Notes under the pieces: model-generated
Told to the model about the DNA's origin: nothing
The model's database searches: none
What the model saw: only the letters and a program-made list of their open reading frames with translations
From: Nitrospinota bacterium
Lineage (GTDB): Bacteria; Nitrospinota_A; UBA7883; JACRGQ01
Assembly: GCA_016200345.1 (NCBI GenBank)
Contig: JACQEX010000058.1
Span: 1 to 53,233, forward strand
Reading direction: 5' to 3'
DNA: 53,233 bases
Made by a program: the position numbers and the translations under genes
Shown: one piece after another, positions 7,440-35,854 of the stretch
Layout: the number at the start of each line of letters is the position of its first letter
How positions within the stretch are numbered: position 1 is the stretch's first letter

Positions 7440-8475
7440 AATATCCGCGAGTGACGCGCTGGCGCTTTTCCAAGAGAGCGACCTTTTGGGGCTTGGGCAA
7501 AGGGCGGACGAGGCTCGAAAACTGCTCCACGGGGACGGCGTCGTAACCTACATCATAGACAGAAACATAAACTACACGAACATCTGCGTGTCCGGCTGTC
7601 TTTTTTGCGCGTTTTATCGCACGGCAAAGTCGGGGGAGGGGTACGTTCTTTCCTCGGAGGAGATTAACGAAAAAATCGCCGAGACAAAAGATGTGGGCGG
7701 GGTGCAAATTCTCATGCAGGGGGGACTGCACCCAACGTGGAGGATAGGGGAATACGAAAAAATGTTGCGCGAGATAAAGGCCGAGCACGAAATACATATT
7801 CACGCGCTCTCGCCGCCGGAAATATGCCACATTGCAGAGTTGAGCGGACTTTCGATAAAGGAGACGATTTCTCGCCTAATCGAGGCCGGTTTGGACTCCA
7901 TACCGGGCGGGGGCGCGGAGATTTTGGTGGACCGCGTGCGCTCGAGGCTAAGCCCCAACAAATGCAACGCTGACAAGTGGCTGGAGGTTATGCGCTCCGC
8001 GCACGGGCTGGGGCTTAAGACAACCGCAACGATGATGTTCGACCACATAGAGACGCTCGAGGAGCGCATTCGCCATATGGAGAGACTGCGCGAGTTGCAG
8101 GACGATACGGGCGGCTTTACGGCCTTCATCCCGTGGCCGTTTCAACACGGGGCCACGGCGCTGGGCAAAAGCGGGGTCGAGAAAAAAACCGGGTCGCTGG
8201 ACTATTTGCGGACGCTTGCCATAAGCAGGATAATGCTGGACAATATACCGAACATACAGGCGTCGTGGGTCACGCAAGGCTCCAAGGTTTCGCAGATGGC
8301 GCTGTTTTTCGGCGCGAACGACATGGGTAGCACGATGCTTGAGGAAAACGTGGTGAGGGCGGCCGGGGTTTCCTTCCGTCTTTCGGAGAAGGAGATTCGC
8401 GGGATTATAACCGACGCCGGTTTTGTTCCGCGCAGGCGGACGCAGGCTTACGCGCTCCTTCCGGAACCGGCATAA
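7432..8475 (+). CDS. mqnC: Cyclic dehypoxanthine futalosine synthase (radical SAM, CofH/MqnC family)
   Basis: DRNINYTNICVSGCLFCAFYR (CxxxCxxC), QGGLHP, SIPGGGAEIL, QASWVTQG, GANDMGSTMLEENVV. Confidence 0.9.
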   Translation: MARISASDALALFQESDLLGLGQRADEARKLLHGDGVVTYIIDRNINYTNICVSGCLFCAFYRTAKSGEGYVLSSEEINEKIAETKDVGGVQILMQGGLHPTWRIGEYEKMLREIKAEHEIHIHALSPPEICHIAELSGLSIKETISRLIEAGLDSIPGGGAEILVDRVRSRLSPNKCNADKWLEVMRSAHGLGLKTTATMMFDHIETLEERIRHMERLRELQDDTGGFTAFIPWPFQHGATALGKSGVEKKTGSLDYLRTLAISRIMLDNIPNIQASWVTQGSKVSQMALFFGANDMGSTMLEENVVRAAGVSFRLSEKEIRGIITDAGFVPRRRTQAYALLPEPA

Positions 8476-8515
8476 ACGTGCGGTTTGGGGCGGTTTGAAA
8501 AATGACGGTTGTATT

Positions 8516-8592
8516 TGTCACCCCGGGCTTGACCCGTGGTTCATTTCCGTTGAAATTTAGGTAATGGATCCCGCATCAAGTGCGGGATGACA
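8516..8592. repeat. Palindromic element, family B (RPE/MITE-like), copy 1
   Basis: TGTCACCCCGGGCTTGACCCG...TGGATCCCGCATCAAGTGCGGGATGACA; terminal TGTCA/TGACA; second copy at 46588-46665. Confidence 0.85.
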
Positions 8593-8630
8593 GTAGGGCG
8601 GGTTGATTAATATTTTTGGAGGCAATTGGT

Positions 8631-9164
8631 TTGAGACGATTATTAGTAACGGCAGTTTTATTTTTGCTGGCGTCGTCCGCAGTATCGTGGGCGTACGACA
8701 AACCGAGCGTGAAGGAGGGGGTCTCCGACGTTTCTCTCGCCCTTTCGGGCCAGACATACAGCGCCAACGGTTCGTCGCTCAGCGTCGTCCAGGCGTCCGG
8801 CTCATACGGATATTTTTACTCCGATAAAATGGAGGTGGGGGCCATTGCCGGGATGCTGGGAATGCAAAACCCCAAGAACAACATAAACGTTACCACCATC
8901 GCGCCGTTCGTAAAACTGCATTACGTGGATCCGAAGTCGGATCCGAACATGATTCCGTACCTGGGAGCCGACGTGCTTTTGGGCAACCTCGATTTTGGCG
9001 GCATTTCGCCTTCGATGATTGGGTTTGAGGTTCTTGGCGGAATGGACTTCTTCGTAAAGAAGGACGTAGCGCTTGGAATAGAGGCCGGGGCGAGTTTTTT
9101 CACCATATCGGGCGTGGGCGGCACTGGGTTCGCCATTCGCGTTCCGTTTAAGATATTCTTTTGA
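8631..9164 (+). CDS. Small outer-membrane beta-barrel protein
   Basis: GGAGG RBS before TTG 8631; signal peptide; amphipathic strands (PYLG); C-terminal Phe. Confidence 0.75.
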   Translation: MRRLLVTAVLFLLASSAVSWAYDKPSVKEGVSDVSLALSGQTYSANGSSLSVVQASGSYGYFYSDKMEVGAIAGMLGMQNPKNNINVTTIAPFVKLHYVDPKSDPNMIPYLGADVLLGNLDFGGISPSMIGFEVLGGMDFFVKKDVALGIEAGASFFTISGVGGTGFAIRVPFKIFF

Positions 9165-26089: not shown

Positions 26090-27189
26090 ATGAGTAGTGA
26101 TAGAAAAACCTCCGAGACCGTCGTTTCATTTAACGACGCAAGGCCGTTGGAAACCCTTTTTACGCGGCTTGGTTGCGGATTCGGGCAAAACGTGTCGGTG
26201 GAGAATCTTCCATTTGCGAACGACGACGTAAGCATCGGCACCGAGAGCGAGTTGCAGACCTCCGTTCAGGGAAACGCCAACGACGTTGATTTGCCGCAGA
26301 CGATAAGGCAGTCCACCTTTTTTTCCAATCTTTACAAGCGAGCCTCAAGCGGAGAGACTAACAAAAAACCGATAAACAAAATAGAAAGGTATCTGGCCCG
26401 CGCCCCAGAAAACACGTGGGAGAACAGCTGGGTGCGGTTTCCCCGCCGGTATCTTTCGCCGTATGCCCAAAAAGTTCTCGGGCGCGATTTGTTGCTGGAC
26501 AAGGACGACCCGGCCTCCGGGTCGAGAAAAGACTCCGGGAAATTCGTTTTTCTTCAGGAGGGGGAGGAGTGGCTCAGGCTCCCGGTTAGCTATCTGTTAA
26601 AGTTGTCGCTCGCGGACGCGGTGGGGGACGGGCAGTTCTCCGTTTCAATCCGGAACAGGGGTGTGGCAATGCTCGACAACTTCCTAAATGACAACACCAG
26701 CCCGGAGACGCACTCTTTCTACTTGGCGCCTTCGGGTCAAAAAGTGAACGCCCCGCAGACGGCGGCCGACGAGTCGGCGCTGAGATTTTTTGTCTCCCAG
26801 CTCGCCGTGTTCTACGCCAACGAAAAGCTTGGGCTTGGCGCCAACAGGCAACGCGCGGTGGTTTACAACTCGCCGCATCCGCCCGTTCGGCAGAGGGAAT
26901 TGAACGACCTCGTGCCGGACTCCTTTGCCACGAGGTTCTTAGCAGAAGCTATTTAAACGCCGTGATAAAACTCCGCGACGCGGGGATAATAACAAGGAAT
27001 CTCGTGGTTCTGCCAAACACCTCCAACATCGCGCTTGCCAACAACGGAACGCACGTGAGCATTGGTAGCGCGATGATGACGAAGGCCATGGCAAGTCCGG
27101 GATCCGGACTCGGGCCGGGACACGAAAAATACGCGGGAGACCTGGCGAGGCGCTTGGGCGTTTTCAAAAGGCCAACCGACGGCCTTTAA
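26090..27189 (+). pseudogene. Broken conserved hypothetical protein, possibly carboxylate-amine ligase (GCS/GS-like) superfamily
   Basis: ORF 26090-26956 continues in another frame from about 26923 (LCHEVLSRSYLNAVIKLRDAGIITRNLVVLPNTSN..NNGTHVSIG) and ends abruptly after EKYAGDLA; GTESELQ and GTHV motifs. Confidence 0.65.
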
Positions 27190-28562
27190 CCGCTCTGCAC
27201 CCCGAGTTTAAGGAAGGGGGGAGAAATTTTATTCATTACCTCGCCCTGCGCCAGCTTGATTTAAAAGAGTTGCAACTTCGTCTGGCCCGCCACGGATTGT
27301 CTTCGCTTGGAAGATGCGAGTCCCACGTGTTGGACAACATCCGGCAGGTGGCGGATAGAATAAGCGATTCGCTGGGCATTCGCGGCGTAAGGCAAAAAAA
27401 GGCAAAGCGCGTTTCTTCCAAATTAAAGCCGCTTACATTGCATTCCGCCGAGGATATTTTAAGCCGCCACACCCGCGATTTATTGGGCAAAAAGCCTTTT
27501 GATAGAAACGTTTATATAATGGTCACGACGCCGCTTAAGGTGGATTTCAGCCCGACATGGGTCAGAAAGGCGCTTCGAGCCGGCGCGAATTTGTTTCGCG
27601 TCAACTGCTCCCACGACGCGGTGGCGGATTGGAGCGAGATTATCAAGACCATCCGGCAGATGTCCTCGGAGTTGGAAATTCCGTGCAGGATATTTATGGA
27701 TCTTGCCGGGCCAAAAATTCGAACGGCGTCCCCGGAGCCCAAAAAACTTTCCACCGGCGACTTCATTAGCCTCGTGGCGGAAATACACAACAAGAAAAAA
27801 GACGTTTTATGCAGTCTGCCGGAGGCGCTGAAGTTCGTGATGGTGGGGGAGAGGGTTGTGTTTGACGACGGAAAAATCAGTGCCGTGGTCGTGGGAAAGG
27901 ACGTCAACAAGGTTGATTTGGAAATTATAAGGACTCCGGGGCCCAAGGTAAAATTAAAGCGCGAAAAGGGGATTAATTTTCCGGACAGCCTGATAAGCGT
28001 ATCCGAGGTGACGGAACAGGATTTAAGAGACCTCGAATTTGCCGCCGTTCACGCGGACATCATCGGCCTGTCGTTTGTTCAAAGCCCGGAGGCGATTCGA
28101 AAAATTCGTCGCGAGATATCGGCGCGCACGACCCGTACCCTAGGCATAGTGCTAAAAATTGAGACGCAGGCGGGGTTTAGGGAGTTGCCGAAACTGCTCT
28201 TCGAGGCGATGCGCGAGTATCCGGCTGGCGTAATGATAGCAAGGGGAGACCTTGGCGTGGAGGTGGGTTTTGAGCGAATGGGGGAGGTTCAGGACGAGAT
28301 ACTCTGGCTTTGCGAATCGGCCCACGTGCCGGTGATATGGGCGACGCAGGTGCTGGAAAACCAGGCCAAGACCGGGATTCCGTCGCGGGCTGAGGTGACG
28401 GACGCGGCGTCGTCGGTGCGGGCCGAGTGCGTGATGTTAAACAAGGGGCCGTTTATAGACGAGACAATTCGCTCGCTGGACGACATATTGAAAAGGATGG
28501 AGGCCCATTCCCACAAGAAGCGGAGCGTCTACCGCAAGCTGAAAGTCGCAAAGTTGCTTTAG
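27147..28562 (+). CDS. pyk: Atypical pyruvate kinase (N-terminal helical extension, no C-terminal regulatory domain); 5' end apparently lost
   Basis: RVNCSH, DLAGPKIRT, KGINFP, KIET, MIARGDLGVE, WATQVLE, PSRAEVTD, CVMLNKG. Family-like N-terminus LHPEF...RNFIHYLALRQLDL lies upstream of the first TTG (27270) with no ATG/GTG/TTG back to TAG 27066. Confidence 0.8.
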   Translation, partial: EALGRFQKANRRPLTALHPEFKEGGRNFIHYLALRQLDLKELQLRLARHGLSSLGRCESHVLDNIRQVADRISDSLGIRGVRQKKAKRVSSKLKPLTLHSAEDILSRHTRDLLGKKPFDRNVYIMVTTPLKVDFSPTWVRKALRAGANLFRVNCSHDAVADWSEIIKTIRQMSSELEIPCRIFMDLAGPKIRTASPEPKKLSTGDFISLVAEIHNKKKDVLCSLPEALKFVMVGERVVFDDGKISAVVVGKDVNKVDLEIIRTPGPKVKLKREKGINFPDSLISVSEVTEQDLRDLEFAAVHADIIGLSFVQSPEAIRKIRREISARTTRTLGIVLKIETQAGFRELPKLLFEAMREYPAGVMIARGDLGVEVGFERMGEVQDEILWLCESAHVPVIWATQVLENQAKTGIPSRAEVTDAASSVRAECVMLNKGPFIDETIRSLDDILKRMEAHSHKKRSVYRKLKVAKLL

Positions 28563-28569
28563 TCGGAAA

Positions 28570-29031
28570 TCAGCCTAGAAAAAACTGCAATTCGGTCAGG
28601 TAATGTTTCGGGTTTCCTTTGAAAACCATCCCCGGCCCTTTGATAAATATCTCGCGCGTCGGCAAAAGCACCTTAAGGTTGTTGTGCTCCACGTGTTTCA
28701 TGACAATTTTATACGCCTCGTCCAGTTCCTCGTACGGCCCTTCGTGAATCAGACTGAGGCATTTCCCGCCCGATAATGTGCGGATATTCGCCCCTTCGTG
28801 TTTGAAGCGCGCGGAAACCGGGATGCACGTCTCCACGTCGGCGTCGTCTTGTTTTAGCTCCAAGTCATAATGTAGATTCATCGCCGGGCCAGAAACGTGT
28901 TTTGTCACGATTCGTCCAAGATTTTTACAAACTTCCCCGGTTTTTTTGTACGGGCCTTTCCATCTGACGGAAACAACGGTCAACGGCGAGACAACTTTTT
29001 CCACGATTTCACAAACGGAATGGTTCGGCAT
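28570..29031 (-). CDS. GyrI-like small-molecule-binding protein
   Basis: HEGPYEEL..AY, PTREIFIKGPG....NP..YLTELQF; AGGAGG RBS before ATG 29031. Confidence 0.85.
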   Translation of the reverse strand: MPNHSVCEIVEKVVSPLTVVSVRWKGPYKKTGEVCKNLGRIVTKHVSGPAMNLHYDLELKQDDADVETCIPVSARFKHEGANIRTLSGGKCLSLIHEGPYEELDEAYKIVMKHVEHNNLKVLLPTREIFIKGPGMVFKGNPKHYLTELQFFLG

Positions 29032-29119
29032 ATCAAAGTCCCTCCTTGACAAAAATTAAGCCAGCATTACTAAAATGGCACACACTCTGCGCCCACTCTA
29101 CCAATCCCCATTAACGGAG

Positions 29120-29509
29120 TCAATCGTCCTTTGGGTCCAAAAGAATCGTTTTTAGACCCGACACGGTTTTTTCGACTTTTTTCAAATCACCGCGCCGTCC
29201 TTTTTCCGGTTTGATGGTGAGTCGCTCAAGAATTGACGTTGCCTTTGTCGTCTCGGATTTTTTAAAGACCCTTCTCCGATCGGCCTTTTGTTGGGCCAAT
29301 TCCACGGCTTCCATTATTTCCAGGATGTCGCGCTCCATGTTTGACGATATCGCGTGGCATAGCTCTTTGCTTGTGGAACGCAGGTGGTGAAGGTATGCCA
29401 GCAGATTTTTGGTCTTTGCCAGATAGGTCGGGTTTTCCTTAACGTCCGCTTTTTGTTTTGCGGCGGCCGTCTTTTCCGGCTTCTTAGCCGAAGTTTTTGC
29501 CTCGGTCAT
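29120..29509 (-). CDS. Small basic helical hypothetical protein
   Basis: ATGA overlap with the upstream tmk-like gene; Lys/Arg-rich KPEKGRRGDLKKVE motif. Confidence 0.75.
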   Translation of the reverse strand: MTEAKTSAKKPEKTAAAKQKADVKENPTYLAKTKNLLAYLHHLRSTSKELCHAISSNMERDILEIMEAVELAQQKADRRRVFKKSETTKATSILERLTIKPEKGRRGDLKKVEKTVSGLKTILLDPKDD

Positions 29510-30258
29510 GCGGTCTTGCCTCCCGTTTTAACTTTTTTAGCCGATGTTTGTTTTACGCTCGGTGTTTGCGCGGGACGCAAAATTCCCTCGATTTTGGCCT
29601 GCAACTCGTTTGTTATGGTGCGCGTCAGCCTGTTTCCGTTGATGATTTGAAACCCGTAGGTGTCTTTCATCGCGGTGAAGGTCTGCCTCAATTTAGTCTG
29701 GTATTGTATGAAACACTCGTATCGGTCGCCGGAGCGGCGGATGTCCATGCCGGACTCCCAGTAATCCAGCACTAGGTTTTTTCTAAGGTTTCTTTCGGCC
29801 AGAACCTTCGGCGGCACCTGAAGGTAAAACACGGCGTCCGGCACCAGCGCAATTCCGTAAACCCCCTTTATCCACTGCTCGTTTTCGCCCCGGACAATGT
29901 CCCGAGCCATCAGCGTGTAGATGTATCTGTCGGCAAGCACGACGAAGCCTGAGCGAAGCCCGGGAATAATCCTGTTTTCCAGCTGGTCGGCAAAGTCGGT
30001 GGCGTAAAAAAGGCTGTGCGTTATCGGGCTCATTACGTTTCCCTGTTTGGCGCTCTCCAACTCCTCGCCTACGAGCGTGGAGCGTTTTAGGCCGACCGTT
30101 ACGGTGGGGTAGCCGATTCTTTCGAGCCAGTTGCTTATAAGGGAAATTTGGGTGGAGCGCCCCGATCCGTCGGAACCCTCGATGACGATGAGCTTTCCCG
30201 TCAGCTGTCTTGTGTCCATCGCCGGCAGTCCGCGCCCGTAGAAATTTCGTTCGGTCAT
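29506..30258 (-). CDS. Thymidylate-kinase-like protein B (P-loop GSDGSGRST)
   Basis: GKLIVIEGSDGSGRSTQ, LADRY; NMP-kinase fold. Confidence 0.85.
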   Translation of the reverse strand: MTERNFYGRGLPAMDTRQLTGKLIVIEGSDGSGRSTQISLISNWLERIGYPTVTVGLKRSTLVGEELESAKQGNVMSPITHSLFYATDFADQLENRIIPGLRSGFVVLADRYIYTLMARDIVRGENEQWIKGVYGIALVPDAVFYLQVPPKVLAERNLRKNLVLDYWESGMDIRRSGDRYECFIQYQTKLRQTFTAMKDTYGFQIINGNRLTRTITNELQAKIEGILRPAQTPSVKQTSAKKVKTGGKTA

Positions 30259-30947
30259 TTATTGTCCCTCCATTTGTATTTTGGCAGGTCAATTTTATCG
30301 CGGATGATTTTTCTAAGTTTTTCCTGCTGGACGTTGGGCGACTCGGTGCCGTCCACAAGGGTGAAGTCAAACTCCTTGGCCATGCTTAAGTATTCGTTGT
30401 AAATTCCGGTTTGGAAAATCTTGAAGCTTTCCTCGGGGTCGTTTGAAAGGCCCAGGTCCATCCCGGCCTCGTGGTATTTTAGCTCAGGCCTGCCGCTTAA
30501 AATACGGTCTATCGCGGTCTCGATGGGAAGTTTGAAGAAAAATGTGATGTCGGGCTGGCGGACGAAGCCGTAGAGCGTCCTCAGCCACTCCTTGTCGCAC
30601 CCGCGCATGGCGTCGCGCGCGAATGCCGTAAATTTATAACGGTCGGCAAGCACTATGTATCCGGCGCGGAGAAGGGGCAGTATCTGCCGCTCGTACCTGT
30701 CGGCAAAATCGGTGCAGTGAATAAGCGAGAACGTGGTTGGCGTCAAAAGTTTTCTTTTTTTCCCTTTTCTTGTGGCGTCCTTCACGAGGTCGGACGAGTT
30801 CCACTCGGTAAAGGCGACCTTGTACCCCTCCAGTTCGAGCCATCGTTTTATAAGGTGGATTTGGGTGGATTTGCCGGAGCCGTCCATTCCCTCCACGGCG
30901 ATGAGCTTGCCGGCGATTTCATGATGAAAGTGCGTTTGTAGGGTCAT
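30255..30947 (-). CDS. Thymidylate-kinase-like protein A (P-loop GMDGSGKST)
   Basis: GKLIAVEGMDGSGKSTQ, LADRY, PDITFF. Confidence 0.88.
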   Translation of the reverse strand: MTLQTHFHHEIAGKLIAVEGMDGSGKSTQIHLIKRWLELEGYKVAFTEWNSSDLVKDATRKGKKRKLLTPTTFSLIHCTDFADRYERQILPLLRAGYIVLADRYKFTAFARDAMRGCDKEWLRTLYGFVRQPDITFFFKLPIETAIDRILSGRPELKYHEAGMDLGLSNDPEESFKIFQTGIYNEYLSMAKEFDFTLVDGTESPNVQQEKLRKIIRDKIDLPKYKWRDNK

Positions 30948-30957
30948 TTATATTTTC

Positions 30958-32466
30958 CTATTCCAAAACTAATTTTAATTGAAAAACTTCCTCGAAGAGG
31001 TCGCATTTCCTTGCCAGCTTCCATTTCTCTATCAAAAGGTCCCCGGATCCCTCAAGGGCCAGGGACGCCTTGCTTTTTGTCAGATCCAAACGGAATTTCT
31101 TCACAATTCCCTCGTGCTCCGTGTCCATGGCGTCGGCAAGCCTCAAAAGCGCGGAGAGTTTCGTGGTCGCGGCTTTTCCCGCGGTGGAAAGAGCCGCAAA
31201 GCCCTCGTGTCTTTCCGTGGGCGAGGCCATCCGGTGGTACCGCGCGATGTTTGCGACTACGGCCTGTTGTTCCTTGTTAAGGCCGATAATCGGCGTGGAG
31301 GAAAGCAGGTAGTAGGTGTGCTTGTGGTGTTTTGAAACCCCGATGAAGGAGCCCACGTCGTGCAGAAGGGCCGCGGCCTCCAGTAGAACGCGGTGTTCGC
31401 CGTTAAGTCCGTGCAGTTCTTTGGTCGCGTCGAACAACATCCCGGAAAGCCGGGCCACGGTTTCGGCGTGCGACTCGTCGTATTGATATTTTTTTCCGAT
31501 TAATCTTGCCGAGGAGAGGGCCTGCTCGCGCTGGATTCCCTTTGTCCCGGCGTATATGCCGCCCCACAGGTCCAGCAAAACTCCATCGCGCAGTCCGACG
31601 TACGGAACGTGAACATTCTCCACCTCCGCCAACTTTGCGATTCTTTGAAGGACGATTGCGGCGGGGAGGATTACGTCCGCCCTGTCGGGTCGCAGGCCAA
31701 TTTCTCGGATTCGCTCCTCGAAGGAGAGGTTTTGAAGTTTTTTTACCAGAGAGTTTAGGAGGGGGAGGGGGATGACCTCGTTCGAGTCGCCGCCCATCTC
31801 GTCCTTGCACAGTCCGCCCATCGTCTCTATGTTTCCGCCGGTGCCGACGCAAAGGTCGATTTTTTTGGGGCCGATAGCCTTTTTAAAATCCTTTTTTAGG
31901 CCGCCAACGTATTCCTGCACCATTTGCGCGAATTCCTTTTCGTCGGTTTTTTTCCCCTTCAACTCGCAAATCAGCCTTACCGTTCCGATGTCGAGGCTGA
32001 CTGACGACGCTATTTTTTCGTTATCCGTCAGGGTAATCTCAACGCTCCCCCCGCCAATCTCGACCAACAGCGCGGTTTTCTGGCGCGTGTCCATCTTGTT
32101 TTGGACCGCCAGGTTTATTAGCCTGGCCTCCTCCTCGCCGCCGATTATCTCGACGTCAATCCCCAGGTTTTTTTTGGCCCGCGCCACGAATTGCGCGCCG
32201 TTTTTTGCGTCGCGAAGGGCGCTGGTGCCTACGGTTTTGGAGAGGACGACGCCGTAATTGTTCATAAGGCCTTTAAACCTTTCCAGCGCCTTTAACGCCC
32301 CGTCCATCATTTTTTCGGAAATCTGGTCGTTTGAGAACACGTCCTGCCCCAAACGAACCGCCTCGCGCGCGCGTTCGACGACCTCCATGCGCCGATTTTG
32401 GTCGGCGTTTGCGATGATGAGCCTAATGGCGTTCGAGCCTATGTCAATTCCAGCAATGGCCGGCAT
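30958..32466 (-). CDS. ppx: Ppx/GppA exopolyphosphatase with C-terminal HD domain
   Basis: IDIGSNAIRL, VRLG, GTSALRDA.N, GEEEARL, EIGGGS.E, RADVILPA, GLRDG, LLHDVG....HHKH. Confidence 0.93.
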   Translation of the reverse strand: MPAIAGIDIGSNAIRLIIANADQNRRMEVVERAREAVRLGQDVFSNDQISEKMMDGALKALERFKGLMNNYGVVLSKTVGTSALRDAKNGAQFVARAKKNLGIDVEIIGGEEEARLINLAVQNKMDTRQKTALLVEIGGGSVEITLTDNEKIASSVSLDIGTVRLICELKGKKTDEKEFAQMVQEYVGGLKKDFKKAIGPKKIDLCVGTGGNIETMGGLCKDEMGGDSNEVIPLPLLNSLVKKLQNLSFEERIREIGLRPDRADVILPAAIVLQRIAKLAEVENVHVPYVGLRDGVLLDLWGGIYAGTKGIQREQALSSARLIGKKYQYDESHAETVARLSGMLFDATKELHGLNGEHRVLLEAAALLHDVGSFIGVSKHHKHTYYLLSSTPIIGLNKEQQAVVANIARYHRMASPTERHEGFAALSTAGKAATTKLSALLRLADAMDTEHEGIVKKFRLDLTKSKASLALEGSGDLLIEKWKLARKCDLFEEVFQLKLVLE

Positions 32467-32483: not shown

Positions 32484-32547
32484 ATTATAACGAGAATACA
32501 CAAAAATCGGTTAAGGAAGCGTTAAGGGCGCGTTAGCGAGCCGTTAA
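32484..32547 (-). promoter_or_regulatory. Four Pho-box-like direct repeats plus TATAAT upstream of ppx
   Basis: Plus-strand GTTAA/GTTAG at 32510, 32521, 32532, 32543 (exact 11-bp period; TTAAC/CTAAC on the minus strand); minus-strand TATAAT at 32484-32489. Confidence 0.65.
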
Positions 32548-34400
32548 ACAAGGAAGCGCCCCACGCGCGCGATGAAATCATAACCATCCCCCTTTTTGCT
32601 TATAAAATCGTTTCCTCCGAGTCTGAAAACTTTTTCGCCGGTTTCCAAATCCGGTTTGGCGGTTATGGCCAACAAAGGAATCGCGTCAAATTTGTGGTTT
32701 CCCCTCATTTCCTTCAACAGCTGAAAGCCGTCCATGACGGGCATGAAGACGTCGGCTATTACCAGATGAAAGGCGAAGGTGTTTAGCAGTTCAAGCGCCT
32801 CGGCCCCGTTTTCGGCCTCCTTTACCTCCACGTTCAGCGGTTGCAAATATTCCTTGTAGATGGAACGGGAAAGCGGATCGTCGTCCACCAGCAACACCAA
32901 CGGTTTTACAAGGGGAAGCGATGCGTGAAAAACGCTCCCTTTCCCGACGGCGGATTCCACGGTTATGGCGCCGCCGTGCGCCTTCATGATGTCCAGCGAA
33001 AGCGGGAGGCCGTAGCCCGTGCCCTTCTCGCCGGCGGTGCCGGTTGTGGCGGTTTTATGCTCCAACGAAAAAATGGTCTCGATGGATTCCGGCGGGACGC
33101 CGACACCGTCGTCGGACACGGACAGGGTGGCCGGGTTGTCATGCTGGGTGAAGACGGTTATTGTTCCGCCGGGCTTGCTAAACTTGATTGCGTTTGTGAG
33201 GAGGTTTTGAACCACCTCGTAGTACAGCACCTGGTCCGCATAAATTCTTGTTTTTGGCCTCACCTCGTTTTTAAGGGCAAGCCCTTTTTTCGAGGCTATC
33301 GGGCCGAGGTTGGCGAACGCCTGTTCCACCACGGAATAAGCGTCCATAAAAACCTTTTTCAGGCTAATTTTTCCGGAGCGAAGTTTGTTGATGTTCAGGA
33401 CGTCGTCAATCAAGCGCGCCATGTTTTCGGTGTTTTGAATAATCAGCTCGACGAATCCGCGAACCTCCTCCACGTTCCCCCTGCCCAGGTTGTCCTTTAT
33501 TATCTTAAGGAACCCGGAGACCACCGAAAGAGGCGCCCGAAGGTCGTGCGCGACGAGCGAGACGAATTGATCCTTAAGTTTAATGGCCTGCTCGGCCAGT
33601 TCCTTGGCCTCCGTCAAACTTTGCTCTATTATTTTGCGGTCGGTTATGTCCTGCGTTGTTCCGGCAAGTTTTATGGCGACGTCCATGTCATCGTGCATGA
33701 CGCTTGCCTGGACGTGCACCCATCGCAACTGTCCGTCGGGGAGGATTATCCTATATTCGCAGGTGTACGGGATTTGTTTTTCCAAAGCATTTTTGATGAT
33801 TTTTACCAAGCCTTCCTTGTCCTGCGGGTGGACTTGTTGTATGAACCTTTCGAAGGTGATTTTCGCCTCGTTGGGAGAGAGGCCAAAAATGCGGTAGTGC
33901 TCGTCTGACCAGGTTGTTTCGTTTGTCCTGAGGTCGCGTTCCCAGTTTCCCAAATGCGAGAGCGAGGCGGCGTATTTAAGCTGTTTTTCGCTCTCCCTCA
34001 GCCGTTGCTCGATTTTTGTTTTGTAGAGGGTGATTTCCAACGCTATTTGAAGCTCTTTTTCCTCGAACGGTTTGAATATGTACCCGAACGGCTCGGTAAT
34101 GGAGGCCCGTTTTAGCATCTCGTCGTCGAAAAAGGCGGTTAGAAATATCACCGGGGTGGGGAGCAGTTTTTTTATTTTATTCGCGGTTTCTATTCCGTCG
34201 TACTTCCCCTTTAATATTATGTCCATAAGGATGACGTCCGGCCTCAACTGCGTCACCTTCATCATCGCCTCCTCGCCGGTGGAGGCGGTTCCGGCGACGG
34301 CGTAGCCGAGTTTTTCCACCGTGCGCTTTATGTCCATGGAGACGATAGTCTCGTCCTCCACGATTAAAATCCTTGGCCGCATCTTAAGTTCCTTCGTCAT
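32544..34400 (-). CDS. Hybrid histidine kinase (REC-PAS-HisKA-HATPase-REC)
   Basis: ILIVEDE..LMDI; PAS (WSDE.YRIFG, VHP.D); AHDLRAPL; NLLTNAIKFS; GTGYGL; C-terminal REC. Confidence 0.93.
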   Translation of the reverse strand: MTKELKMRPRILIVEDETIVSMDIKRTVEKLGYAVAGTASTGEEAMMKVTQLRPDVILMDIILKGKYDGIETANKIKKLLPTPVIFLTAFFDDEMLKRASITEPFGYIFKPFEEKELQIALEITLYKTKIEQRLRESEKQLKYAASLSHLGNWERDLRTNETTWSDEHYRIFGLSPNEAKITFERFIQQVHPQDKEGLVKIIKNALEKQIPYTCEYRIILPDGQLRWVHVQASVMHDDMDVAIKLAGTTQDITDRKIIEQSLTEAKELAEQAIKLKDQFVSLVAHDLRAPLSVVSGFLKIIKDNLGRGNVEEVRGFVELIIQNTENMARLIDDVLNINKLRSGKISLKKVFMDAYSVVEQAFANLGPIASKKGLALKNEVRPKTRIYADQVLYYEVVQNLLTNAIKFSKPGGTITVFTQHDNPATLSVSDDGVGVPPESIETIFSLEHKTATTGTAGEKGTGYGLPLSLDIMKAHGGAITVESAVGKGSVFHASLPLVKPLVLLVDDDPLSRSIYKEYLQPLNVEVKEAENGAEALELLNTFAFHLVIADVFMPVMDGFQLLKEMRGNHKFDAIPLLAITAKPDLETGEKVFRLGGNDFISKKGDGYDFIARVGRFLV

Positions 34401-35854
34401 GCATTTTTGTTGAACCTTATGCGAATCGTCGTTTTTTCGCCGCGTTCAAAATCAATTGTTCCCTGTAGCTGGTCTTTCACCAACTGCGTCACCAAATCCA
34501 GCCCGAAACTCCCGACGTCCCCGACGTCCCTTCTCATGCCCACGCCGTCGTCCTCCACGAGGATTTCAACCGCTCCGTCCGGCGATGAAGAGGCGGTAAT
34601 CCACGCGTTCCCCTTTTTTCCGCCCGGGAACGCGTGCTTAATGATGTTCGTGACAAGCTCGTTCATCACAATGCCGCAGGGAATCGCATAGTCGGCGCCA
34701 AGCGAAACCCCTTCGGCGCTGACGGTGAACTTAATTTTATCTTTGCCGACCCCCTCGTACCCTTTTGCCAAAGTCGAGACCATCTCGCTGAAATACTCTC
34801 CCATCATGATATCTGAAACGCCGCCGGGTTTGTAGAGTTTTTCGTGCAACAACGAGATGGAGCGCACCAAAGCCTCGCTTTCCTTAAACTGCTCCAAATC
34901 CTTGGGGTCTTTTATGTTCCTCGACTTAAGGCGCAGGATGCTTGCGACAATTTGCAGGTTGTTTTTCACCCTGTGGTGAATTTCGCGGAGCAACAGCTCT
35001 TTTTCCTCGTACTGTCCTCGTAAAATTTCCTCGTCCCTCATTCTTTCGGATATCTCCGCGCCAAGCCGTTCGTTCGCCGCCGTAAGGTCGGCGACCCGTT
35101 CCCTGACGGTGCGCTCCAGGTTTTCCTTGGCGGATTTAAGCAGGTTTTCGGCGACCTCGCGGTCCGCCATCTCGTGAAGAAGCTCGTCGTATGAGTTTTG
35201 CACGTTTTTGGCCATCGGCCTGAATATGAACAACGCCTCCATGATCAGCAGTGAAATGGCGAAAAGGGTGACGACGGTCTGGCTGTTTTTTAGTTTGGTT
35301 ACGCGCTCGTCGGCCCTTTTTTGGAACTCGAACACGGTCATGTTCATCAGGTCAAGAAATTGCGGCGAGGCCTCGACAATTTCTTTTAATGGAGGGGATG
35401 AGAGGGGAATGGCGCCGGAATCTGAGGTTTTAAGGAGAATCAGTTTTTCCAGCCCGTCCTTGACGTTTTGGAAATACGGGTTCATCTCGGCAAAATAGCC
35501 CTCGGCTTTTTTGTCGGTGTTTTTCGGGAGGCCCAGCGCCTCGTTTCCGTTTTGTAGTCCCGCCTGAACCGTTGTCCATTCGTCCAGCGAGGCGCGGATT
35601 GTCCCTCGATAAATCTCAATCTCCCCCTTGTCCGTGGTCTGCGCGAAAAGCAGGGCGGTTTTTGTGAGCTTTTGCGAGAGCATTCGTTGACGTCCCGAGA
35701 GGTTGATTAAATTCGCGTCCGCCTCGTTCTGGTGGATGATGAGCCGGGTTGTGACGTGGCCGAGAATGACCAGCGTGGCGATGAGCGAAAGGGCGGCGAC
35801 GTAGCGGATGGTTATGTATTTTAACTTATGTATTCTGGAAAAATGTTTATCCAT
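34397..35854 (-). CDS. Membrane histidine kinase with NarX/PilJ-type sensor and HisKA_2 core
   Basis: Two TMs; INLSGRQRMLSQK (P-box-like); EIHHRVKNNLQ; ELVTNIIKHAF; DDGVG. Confidence 0.9.
   Translation of the reverse strand: MDKHFSRIHKLKYITIRYVAALSLIATLVILGHVTTRLIIHQNEADANLINLSGRQRMLSQKLTKTALLFAQTTDKGEIEIYRGTIRASLDEWTTVQAGLQNGNEALGLPKNTDKKAEGYFAEMNPYFQNVKDGLEKLILLKTSDSGAIPLSSPPLKEIVEASPQFLDLMNMTVFEFQKRADERVTKLKNSQTVVTLFAISLLIMEALFIFRPMAKNVQNSYDELLHEMADREVAENLLKSAKENLERTVRERVADLTAANERLGAEISERMRDEEILRGQYEEKELLLREIHHRVKNNLQIVASILRLKSRNIKDPKDLEQFKESEALVRSISLLHEKLYKPGGVSDIMMGEYFSEMVSTLAKGYEGVGKDKIKFTVSAEGVSLGADYAIPCGIVMNELVTNIIKHAFPGGKKGNAWITASSSPDGAVEILVEDDGVGMRRDVGDVGSFGLDLVTQLVKDQLQGTIDFERGEKTTIRIRFNKNA

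Follow-up and report, generated by a model that had tools for sequence, protein, structure and literature searches.

The window analysed here is the whole 53,233-base contig JACQEX010000058.1 of a Nitrospinota bacterium, and statements on genome content refer to this 53-kb contig. Four co-directional open reading frames (ORFs) on its minus strand, ppx, A, B and S, were found where an earlier reading of the letters alone (the sequence-only reading) had placed them (Table 1). The locus is probably a bacterial operon of polyphosphate kinase 3 (PPK3), composed of ppx, the catalytic subunit cPPK3 (A), an rPPK3-like subunit (B) and a small basic protein (S); this assignment, made from sequence, is given a probability of about 0.8. 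Homology and gene context make it equally likely that A and B act on polyphosphate (polyP) and ATP rather than on deoxythymidine monophosphate (dTMP). The sequence-only reading had proposed a catalytic A and a regulatory B acting on polyP and not on dTMP. This proposal is supported by the archaeal pair Saci_2019/Saci_2020 (PMC12995831) and is essentially the mechanism published for it, at least as set out in the main text of that report. The complex can thus not be called new, which the sequence-only reading had thought possible, since it was described in a preprint in 2024 and in the Journal of Biological Chemistry (JBC) in 2026.

PPK3 was described by Hofmann et al. (J Biol Chem 2026, PMC12995831; preprint 2024, bioRxiv 10.1101/2024.08.28.610084), and the properties given in this paragraph follow the main text of that report. 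In Sulfolobus acidocaldarius, the proteins Saci_2019 and Saci_2020, 'thymidylate kinases' encoded beside ppx, form a heteromeric polyphosphate kinase (SaPPK3). Saci_2019 (cPPK3) is the catalytic subunit and makes polyP from ATP as well as ATP from ADP and polyP. Saci_2020 (rPPK3) is inactive by itself and boosts the activity of Saci_2019, with a maximum at a 1:1 ratio, and the complex is alpha2-beta2. The reaction is reversible, with ATP formation from ADP and polyP being favoured; ADP and ATP are preferred, and GDP is accepted at reduced activity. Deoxythymidine diphosphate (dTDP) is made by neither protein, and the real dTMP kinase (dTMPK) of the organism is a third paralogue located elsewhere in the genome. 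The arginine of the DRX motif is replaced in the rPPK3s, which is the explanation offered for their inactivity, and conservation of the basic residues of the cleft is seen in cPPK3 and is absent from rPPK3. Relative to PPK2, the ADP and polyP sites are swapped. The operon of Saci_2019 and Saci_2020 includes ppx, SixA and CHAD, the CHAD proteins being named as PPK-associated, and gene neighbourhoods were analysed by COG and CDD domains. Most genomes with PPK3 are said to lack PPK1 and PPK2, and the enzyme is reported from 'few bacteria'. STK_15430 is named as a cPPK3 homologue. A literature search with the names rPPK3, cPPK3 and SaPPK3 gave, besides the 2024 preprint and the JBC paper, just one unrelated article, in which 'rPPK3' has a different sense.

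The locus described here resembles the published SaPPK3 cluster in having two adjacent paralogues of the dTMPK fold beside ppx, one with a complete and one with a degenerate active site. It differs in being bacterial and known from its genes alone, where SaPPK3 is archaeal, and in carrying no CHAD or SixA gene in the window, with S in their place. A and B are coupled and mutually similar, as the sequence-only reading had noted: the genes overlap by 4 nt and the products are 38% identical (81/212 positions, E 4e-53). The strings it had quoted, TDFAD, VLADRY and GMD, are present in the A/B alignment, and the similarity is thus far beyond chance. Both proteins match Pfam Thymidylate_kin (A, E 1.6e-19; B, E 2.7e-18). 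Among all PDB chains, the best matches of A are 2plr, 4nzy, 4rzx and 5h70, all of ST1543 (STK_15430) of Sulfurisphaera tokodaii, which is deposited as 'probable thymidylate kinase' (PDB 2plr); the match covers residues 13-220 with E 1.1e-61 and 211 bits, and canonical thymidylate kinases (Tmks) reach 3.3e-13 or weaker. The corresponding values for B are 2.4e-38 for STK_15430 and 6.7e-12 or weaker for canonical Tmks, so that A and B are weaker to the solved Tmks than to the cPPK3 homologue by about 48 and 26 orders of E-value, respectively. STK_15430 is archaeal, was solved alone without a partner subunit, and differs from B at the Walker A lysine. On the NCBIfam equivalog model for dTMP kinase, TIGR00041, neither A (83.0 bits) nor B (71.3 bits) reaches the cut-off of 83.25 bits.

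With canonical Tmk (PF02223, TIGR00041), A and B share the fold, the phosphate-binding loop (P-loop), the DRY motif and the architecture of the lid. They differ from it in the dTMP-site stretch, T-R-E-P-G-G in the Thermus enzyme, which is replaced by an invariant E-W-N-S-S in A and by G-L-K-R-S in B, and in that their genes form a pair with polyP genes in linkage. Judged by the score gap, A and B would both belong to the Saci_2019/STK_15430 clade, apart from canonical dTMPKs. PPK2 is a family other than that of A and B, neither of which has a match to Pfam PPK2 (PF03976) at E<=0.01.

Conservation was assessed on loci found by scanning bacterial and archaeal contigs, one genome for each species, with aligned relatives of A; at least 600 stretches matched and at least 575 were confirmed, the best 80 of which were kept. 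For A, these 80 loci and the window gave 81 sequences. The P-loop of A is G-M-D-G-S-G-K-S, with the Walker A lysine at Lys26, and that of B is G-S-D-G-S-G-R-S; the canonical GxxGxGKS of A and the GxxGxGRS of B were thus correctly read before. The Walker A lysine and the D-R of DRY (D102-R103-Y104) are present in 81/81 sequences of A, and the lid residues R148, R153 and K157 are conserved in at least 99%. Lysine or arginine occupies 17 positions of A and 10 of B at a frequency of at least 90%, which matches the conservation of cleft residues reported in the main text for cPPK3 only (PMC12995831); the 17 positions of A include the extra conserved basic patch K56, K61, K63, R84 and R87. SaPPK3 likewise has, by its published description, a conserved basic surface on the complete subunit. 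With intact P-loop, DRX motif and lid, and with conserved basic residues in the predicted cleft, A appears to be built as a catalytic PPK3 subunit.

In B, for which 78 sequences were counted at the Walker A and DRY positions, Arg34 stands at the place of the Walker A lysine. Arginine is found there in 78/78, so that the K-to-R replacement that the sequence-only reading had seen in a single protein is conserved. DRY (residues 110-112) is kept in 77/78, the remaining, truncated row being gapped. More distant representatives have arginine at the Walker A position or, in a subgroup, cysteine (7/81 rows of the tree described below). B also keeps the lid residue R156 and ends in a disordered basic C-terminal tail. 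The pocket residues E27, G28, D30, G33, R34, D110, R111, R119, R123, R156, W167, E168, G170 and D172 are invariant in 22/22 sequences. The AlphaFold2 (AF2) model of B has a mean predicted local distance difference test score (pLDDT) of 91.3, and its best PDB folds are 2plr, 4nzy and 5h70 (template modelling score by target 0.87-0.92), with canonical Tmks next.

The best 80 loci are mostly from metagenome-assembled genomes (MAGs) of Verrucomicrobiota. Other sources are Ignavibacteria, Terriglobia and Acidobacteria, Sumerlaeota, Anaerolineales, Deltaproteobacteria, Bdellovibrionales and Goldiibacteriota, and two loci are archaeal (Thermoplasmata, Methanoliparum). A is followed directly by B in 77/80, and the other three (L004, L040, L042) end at a contig edge just past A. 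The A/B junction is a 4-nt overlap in 39/77 and lies within -20..+20 nt in 64/77; in 11 further loci, where the first in-frame start lies upstream, the apparent junction may differ from the true gap. Neighbouring genes were identified by Pfam on 32 ORFs, followed by seed-profile searches over all 80 loci within about 6 kb. PPX was found in 32/80, a ROK-family kinase in 30/80, S in 13/80, CHAD in 12/80, a SixA-like histidine phosphatase in 9/80 and PPK2 in 1/80. At least one of PPX, CHAD, SixA-like, ROK and PPK2 is present in 48/80, and the linkage to polyP genes on which the sequence-only reading had made itself depend therefore recurs elsewhere. The occurrence of CHAD and SixA-like genes is shared with the SaPPK3 cluster as published.

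Outside Verrucomicrobiota the usual order is ppx-A-B-(S)-CHAD-SixA, and inside this group it is A-B-ROK-short Ppx. The ROK gene in Verrucomicrobiota is mostly followed by a short Ppx/GppA protein of roughly 310-335 aa. The pair is followed by ROK in, among others, L013, L015, L022-L024, L029, L030, L034-L037, L044, L045, L047-L049, L054, L056, L059, L062 and L064. This ROK kinase is possibly a glucokinase that depends on polyphosphate and is coupled to PPK3. In the Methanoliparum locus L060, a CHAD-HD fusion protein (7482-8867) is encoded after B.

A search of the full library with B gave 8813 matches at E<=0.001, of which 199 had E<=1e-30, and the best 150 representatives were inspected. P0133 is a natural A-B fusion in one chain of 460 aa. 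P0142, P0156 and P0186 (650-696 aa) join A and a degenerate B to Ppx-GppA domain III/HD, and in P0256 (1610 aa) a Tmk-like domain occurs together with one of inorganic pyrophosphatase. The layout of P0133 mimics that of the two-domain class II PPK2 enzymes (for example Pseudomonas aeruginosa PA3455), in whose published description an inactive P-loop module oligomerises with and activates the active one; the resemblance is one of working only. A tree was built from 81 rows (23 A, 23 B and 35 representatives), with the long-branch P0279 left out. Its 40 rows with the Walker A lysine and 41 rows without it are split by a single branch, supported at 87/78 under LG+G4 and at 99/97 under a site-mixture model, consistent with a single ancient duplication after which the lysine was lost. 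P0210, P0280, P0293 and P0295 keep the Walker A lysine, have N-K-Y in place of D-R-Y, and fall on the A side of the tree. The variant group with lysine kept and DRY replaced by N-K-Y or E-Q-Y, which lies on that side of the tree and has its named relatives in Margulisiibacteriota, also counts P0257. A homology search with P0280 gave relatives in Margulisiibacteriota, Acidobacteria and Vicinamibacterales, and none in Sulfolobales. The distances within A and within B are correlated over 78 pairs (Mantel r 0.86, reached in 0/1000 permutations), although a shared genome history gives the same. Natural fusions and correlated divergence lend indirect support to a putative A-B hetero-oligomer. The sequence-only reading had expected an A/B heterodimer; the two-subunit enzyme is supported, and the simple heterodimer does not agree with the alpha2-beta2 tetramer described for the archaeal enzyme (PMC12995831).

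The Lys/Arg-rich nature of S that had been noted before was confirmed, with 22.5% Lys+Arg and an isoelectric point of 9.74. S has no Pfam match. In a set of 5.8 billion proteins it has, besides itself, 11 homologues of 120-142 aa, one of them labelled as a Nitrospinae MAG. A profile built from these homologues and iterated twice was run on the 80 loci and found an S-type ORF in 13 (L001, L002, L005, L006, L009, L011, L012, L014, L017, L019, L039, L057 and L058). All 13 are inside the A-B cluster, directly after B in 12 and upstream of SixA-A in L011, and belong to Ignavibacteria, Terriglobia and Acidobacteria, Sumerlaeota, a deltaproteobacterium, Goldiibacteriota, Verrucomicrobiota and a Thermoplasmata archaeon. 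Other small ORFs recurring after B proved to be out-of-frame ORFs inside ROK genes, which leaves S as the sole real one. Invariant residues of the family are L43, R44, K103, G104 and D108, and residues 100-109 form the motif K-P-x-K-G-R-x-K-D-L. The N-terminal tail is disordered, rich in Lys, Ala and Pro, and net positive in 21/21 family rows. An AF2 model from the 21-row alignment (pLDDT 86) has helices at 27-73, 84-96 and 106-123, with the motif in the loop ahead of the last predicted helix. Pfam searches with the 21 members at E up to 1 gave no family common to more than two, the best feature score in the ESM Atlas was 0.81 (under the lead level of 0.9), and Foldseek of the model against PDB gave 0 matches at E<=0.001. 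A complex prediction of A, B and residues 25-129 of S, with S as the partner and run without controls, gave no answer in either direction (score 0.00, mark 0.32).

CHAD (PF05235) genes follow B or S in 12/80 loci; S itself has no CHAD match at E up to 1, and the S profile misses the CHAD ORFs. A different parallel is offered by AlgP of Pseudomonas aeruginosa, described as a histone-H1-like protein of polyP granules (PMC9239181). Like S, AlgP has a Lys/Pro/Ala-rich basic tail of low complexity, and some homologues of S contain K-P-x-x-like repeats comparable to the basic repeats of AlgP; this is an analogy, with no claim of homology. S is set apart by its short N-terminal tail of 7-58 residues and by having as its conserved part a helical domain that carries a motif of its own, and the algP gene does not lie beside a PPK3. 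By its position and charge, S might be an accessory that aims the kinase at polyP or granules, which is speculation. Since the neighbourhood method in the main text of the PPK3 report used COG and CDD domains (PMC12995831), an ORF without a domain, such as S, would not register.

From these data a scheme was inferred for the enzyme activity, reaction direction, oligomer and role of S. A would bind ATP or ADP at the P-loop and polyP in the basic cleft, at the site of dTMP in thymidylate kinase. It would catalyse the reversible reaction ADP + polyP(n) <-> ATP + polyP(n-1), probably toward ATP regeneration at low energy charge. B, a paralogue without the Walker A lysine, is expected to transfer no phosphate and would activate A in a hetero-oligomer. 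PPX, encoded directly upstream, would cut polyP from the chain end, so that synthesis or use of polyP and its degradation would be co-expressed. S may, speculatively, use its basic tail and the Lys/Arg motif to tie the enzyme to the polyanion or to granules of polyP.

Several points weigh against a PPK3 operon. The function of A and B would be transferred across domains, from an archaeal enzyme to bacteria. A is only 0.25 bit under the TIGR00041 cut-off, and every named relative is labelled dTMP kinase. The status of tmk, PPK1 and PPK2 is covered for the 53-kb contig only, which contains no third Tmk-like ORF, no PPK1 and no PPK2. None of the five polyP gene types, searched for with our own seeds, lies within about 6 kb in 32/80 loci, and S is present in only 13/80, so that it is no general part of the system. 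In the Goldiibacteriota locus L014 a PPK2 gene (7964-9013) stands right after S, so that a single cluster can house both PPK3 and PPK2. By the main text of the report, the DRX arginine is missing from the rPPK3s, while B keeps DRY in 77/78; in SaPPK3 the regulatory subunit lost this arginine, and in B the Walker A lysine has become arginine instead, a contrast between the text of the paper and the sequences compared here. With DRY kept, B may not be the equivalent of Saci_2020, or may not be inert. It could be an orthologue of Saci_2020 with another lesion or a parallel solution.

If A, or both A and B, were ordinary ATP:dTMP kinases, the ppx neighbourhood would be incidental. The Pfam Thymidylate_kin matches, the near-threshold TIGR00041 score of A, and the dTMP kinase titles of the closest solved relative and names of other relatives fit such an assignment. 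It is nevertheless improbable, as both proteins are below the equivalog cut-off, the T-R-E-P-G-G region is replaced in both, B is without the Walker A lysine in every sequence, and polyP genes are repeatedly linked to the pair. No dTDP was formed by the Sulfolobus orthologue of A, and the earlier work on S. tokodaii is stated in the main text of the same report to have measured only ADP formation (PMC12995831). Still less likely is that the pair phosphorylates alarmones, or nucleoside mono- or diphosphates with polyP as donor, alongside a Ppx/GppA enzyme working as GppA. The ppx product is indeed of the Ppx/GppA family, has a weak match to pppGpp phosphatase and stays below the cut-off of an exopolyphosphatase model (see below), and SaPPK3 takes GDP, at the reduced activity given in the main text (PMC12995831). 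However, neighbours at other loci are specific to polyP (CHAD, PPK2, fusions of the kinase with Ppx domain III), ADP and ATP are preferred by the characterised homologue according to the same source (PMC12995831), and the window showed no gene of RelA/SpoT type; the alarmone-type substrate suggested by the sequence-only reading found no support.

A bolder version of the PPK3 assignment concerns B. It is conceivable, although doubtful, that B is a pseudokinase binding a nucleotide or polyP that sets the processivity or direction of A, a solution unlike that of the archaeal rPPK3. The pocket of B is conserved apart from the change of lysine to arginine, DRY is retained, and the lysine is always replaced by arginine or by the cysteine of the subgroup, while the rPPK3s are described, in the main text, as being without the DRX arginine (PMC12995831). 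That contrast, however, is drawn from the text of the paper, conservation of the pocket can equally reflect fold stability or a subunit interface, and conserved basic residues are fewer in B than in A. A wider and similarly tentative proposal holds that bacterial PPK3 is a three-part system with a ligand-binding B and S as a partner, spread beyond 'few bacteria'. As part of it, the change of the Walker A lysine to arginine or cysteine, with DRY and lid intact, would have one ancient origin. S, present in a subset of lineages from seven or more bacterial phyla and from one archaeon, would be a dedicated partner and recruit polyP or granules to the kinase, or prime or cap the chain. The spread would be in uncultured bacteria, above all in Verrucomicrobiota with ROK and short Ppx.

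Table 1. Features of the probable PPK3 locus and of its surroundings in the window
Feature	Position	Strand	Description
ppx	30958..32466	-	502 aa, Ppx/GppA-family exopolyphosphatase, long form; C-terminal domain III (HD-like)
A	30255..30947	-	230 aa; predicted catalytic subunit (cPPK3-type), dTMPK-fold P-loop kinase
B	29506..30258	-	250 aa; predicted non-catalytic partner, rPPK3-like pseudokinase
S	29120..29509	-	129-aa basic protein, translationally coupled to B
Terminator-like hairpin and T-run	29077..29093	-	27 nt past the S stop; possible operon end
GyrI-like gene	28570..29052	-	160 aa, small-molecule-binding protein; 67 nt after S
Sensor kinase, hybrid	32544..34400	-	PAS/HisKA/HATPase with two receiver domains; 77 nt from ppx
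Sensor kinase	34397..35854	-	PilJ-N/HisKA_2
Pyruvate-kinase-like ORF	27270..28562	+	430 aa, TTG start
75-aa ORF	26962..27189	+	Upstream of the pyruvate-kinase-like ORF, other frame
288-aa ORF	26090..26956	+	No family; upstream of the pyruvate-kinase-like ORF, other frame

The stop of ppx and the start of A are separated by 10 nt in the sequence, and the A/B and B/S junctions are each a 4-nt ATGA overlap. The ppx product matches Pfam Ppx-GppA (E 8.9e-51) and Ppx-GppA_III (E 3.9e-27) and scores 232 bits on the NCBIfam exopolyphosphatase model TIGR03706 (cut-off 307). The scanned stretch yielded 13 terminator-like sites, where shuffles gave 8.2 +/- 2.8, and as the promoter and terminator scan is barely above shuffles, the operon boundaries are only suggested. 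The gap between S and the GyrI-like gene contains the terminator-like hairpin and a promoter-like site, and the GyrI-like gene is probably a separate transcription unit. Two sensor kinases are encoded immediately upstream of ppx and on its strand (window 32544-35854); a regulatory tie to the polyP operon is possible, and similar sensor kinases occur only sporadically in the related loci. The pyruvate-kinase-like ORF (region 26090-28562) matches NCBIfam NF011314 (614 positions) over profile positions 356-611 only, and with the two ORFs upstream it may represent either a long pyruvate kinase broken by a frameshift or a set of separate genes. Neither a tRNA gene nor an Rfam family reaching its gathering score was found in the whole 53-kb contig.

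What the locus adds to the main text of the literature is given as leads, namely a second subunit with lysine changed to arginine and DRY kept, the S family, and the breadth of the system with the Verrucomicrobial A-B-ROK-Ppx arrangement; the supplement of the paper may already include such bacterial lineages or the small ORF. A single archaeal enzyme served to define PPK3, which was called rare in bacteria, a picture that this locus and its relatives change. With at least 575 matching stretches, the A/B 'dTMP kinase' pair is probably a common route of exchange between polyP and ATP in uncultured soil and freshwater bacteria, and its carriers include lineages that are used to model phosphorus cycling. 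In annotation, the name tmk should be avoided for A and for B. For the regulation of the system, leads are provided by the invariant pseudokinase subunit with lysine changed to arginine, by S, and by the ROK-family kinase as a possible polyP glucokinase.

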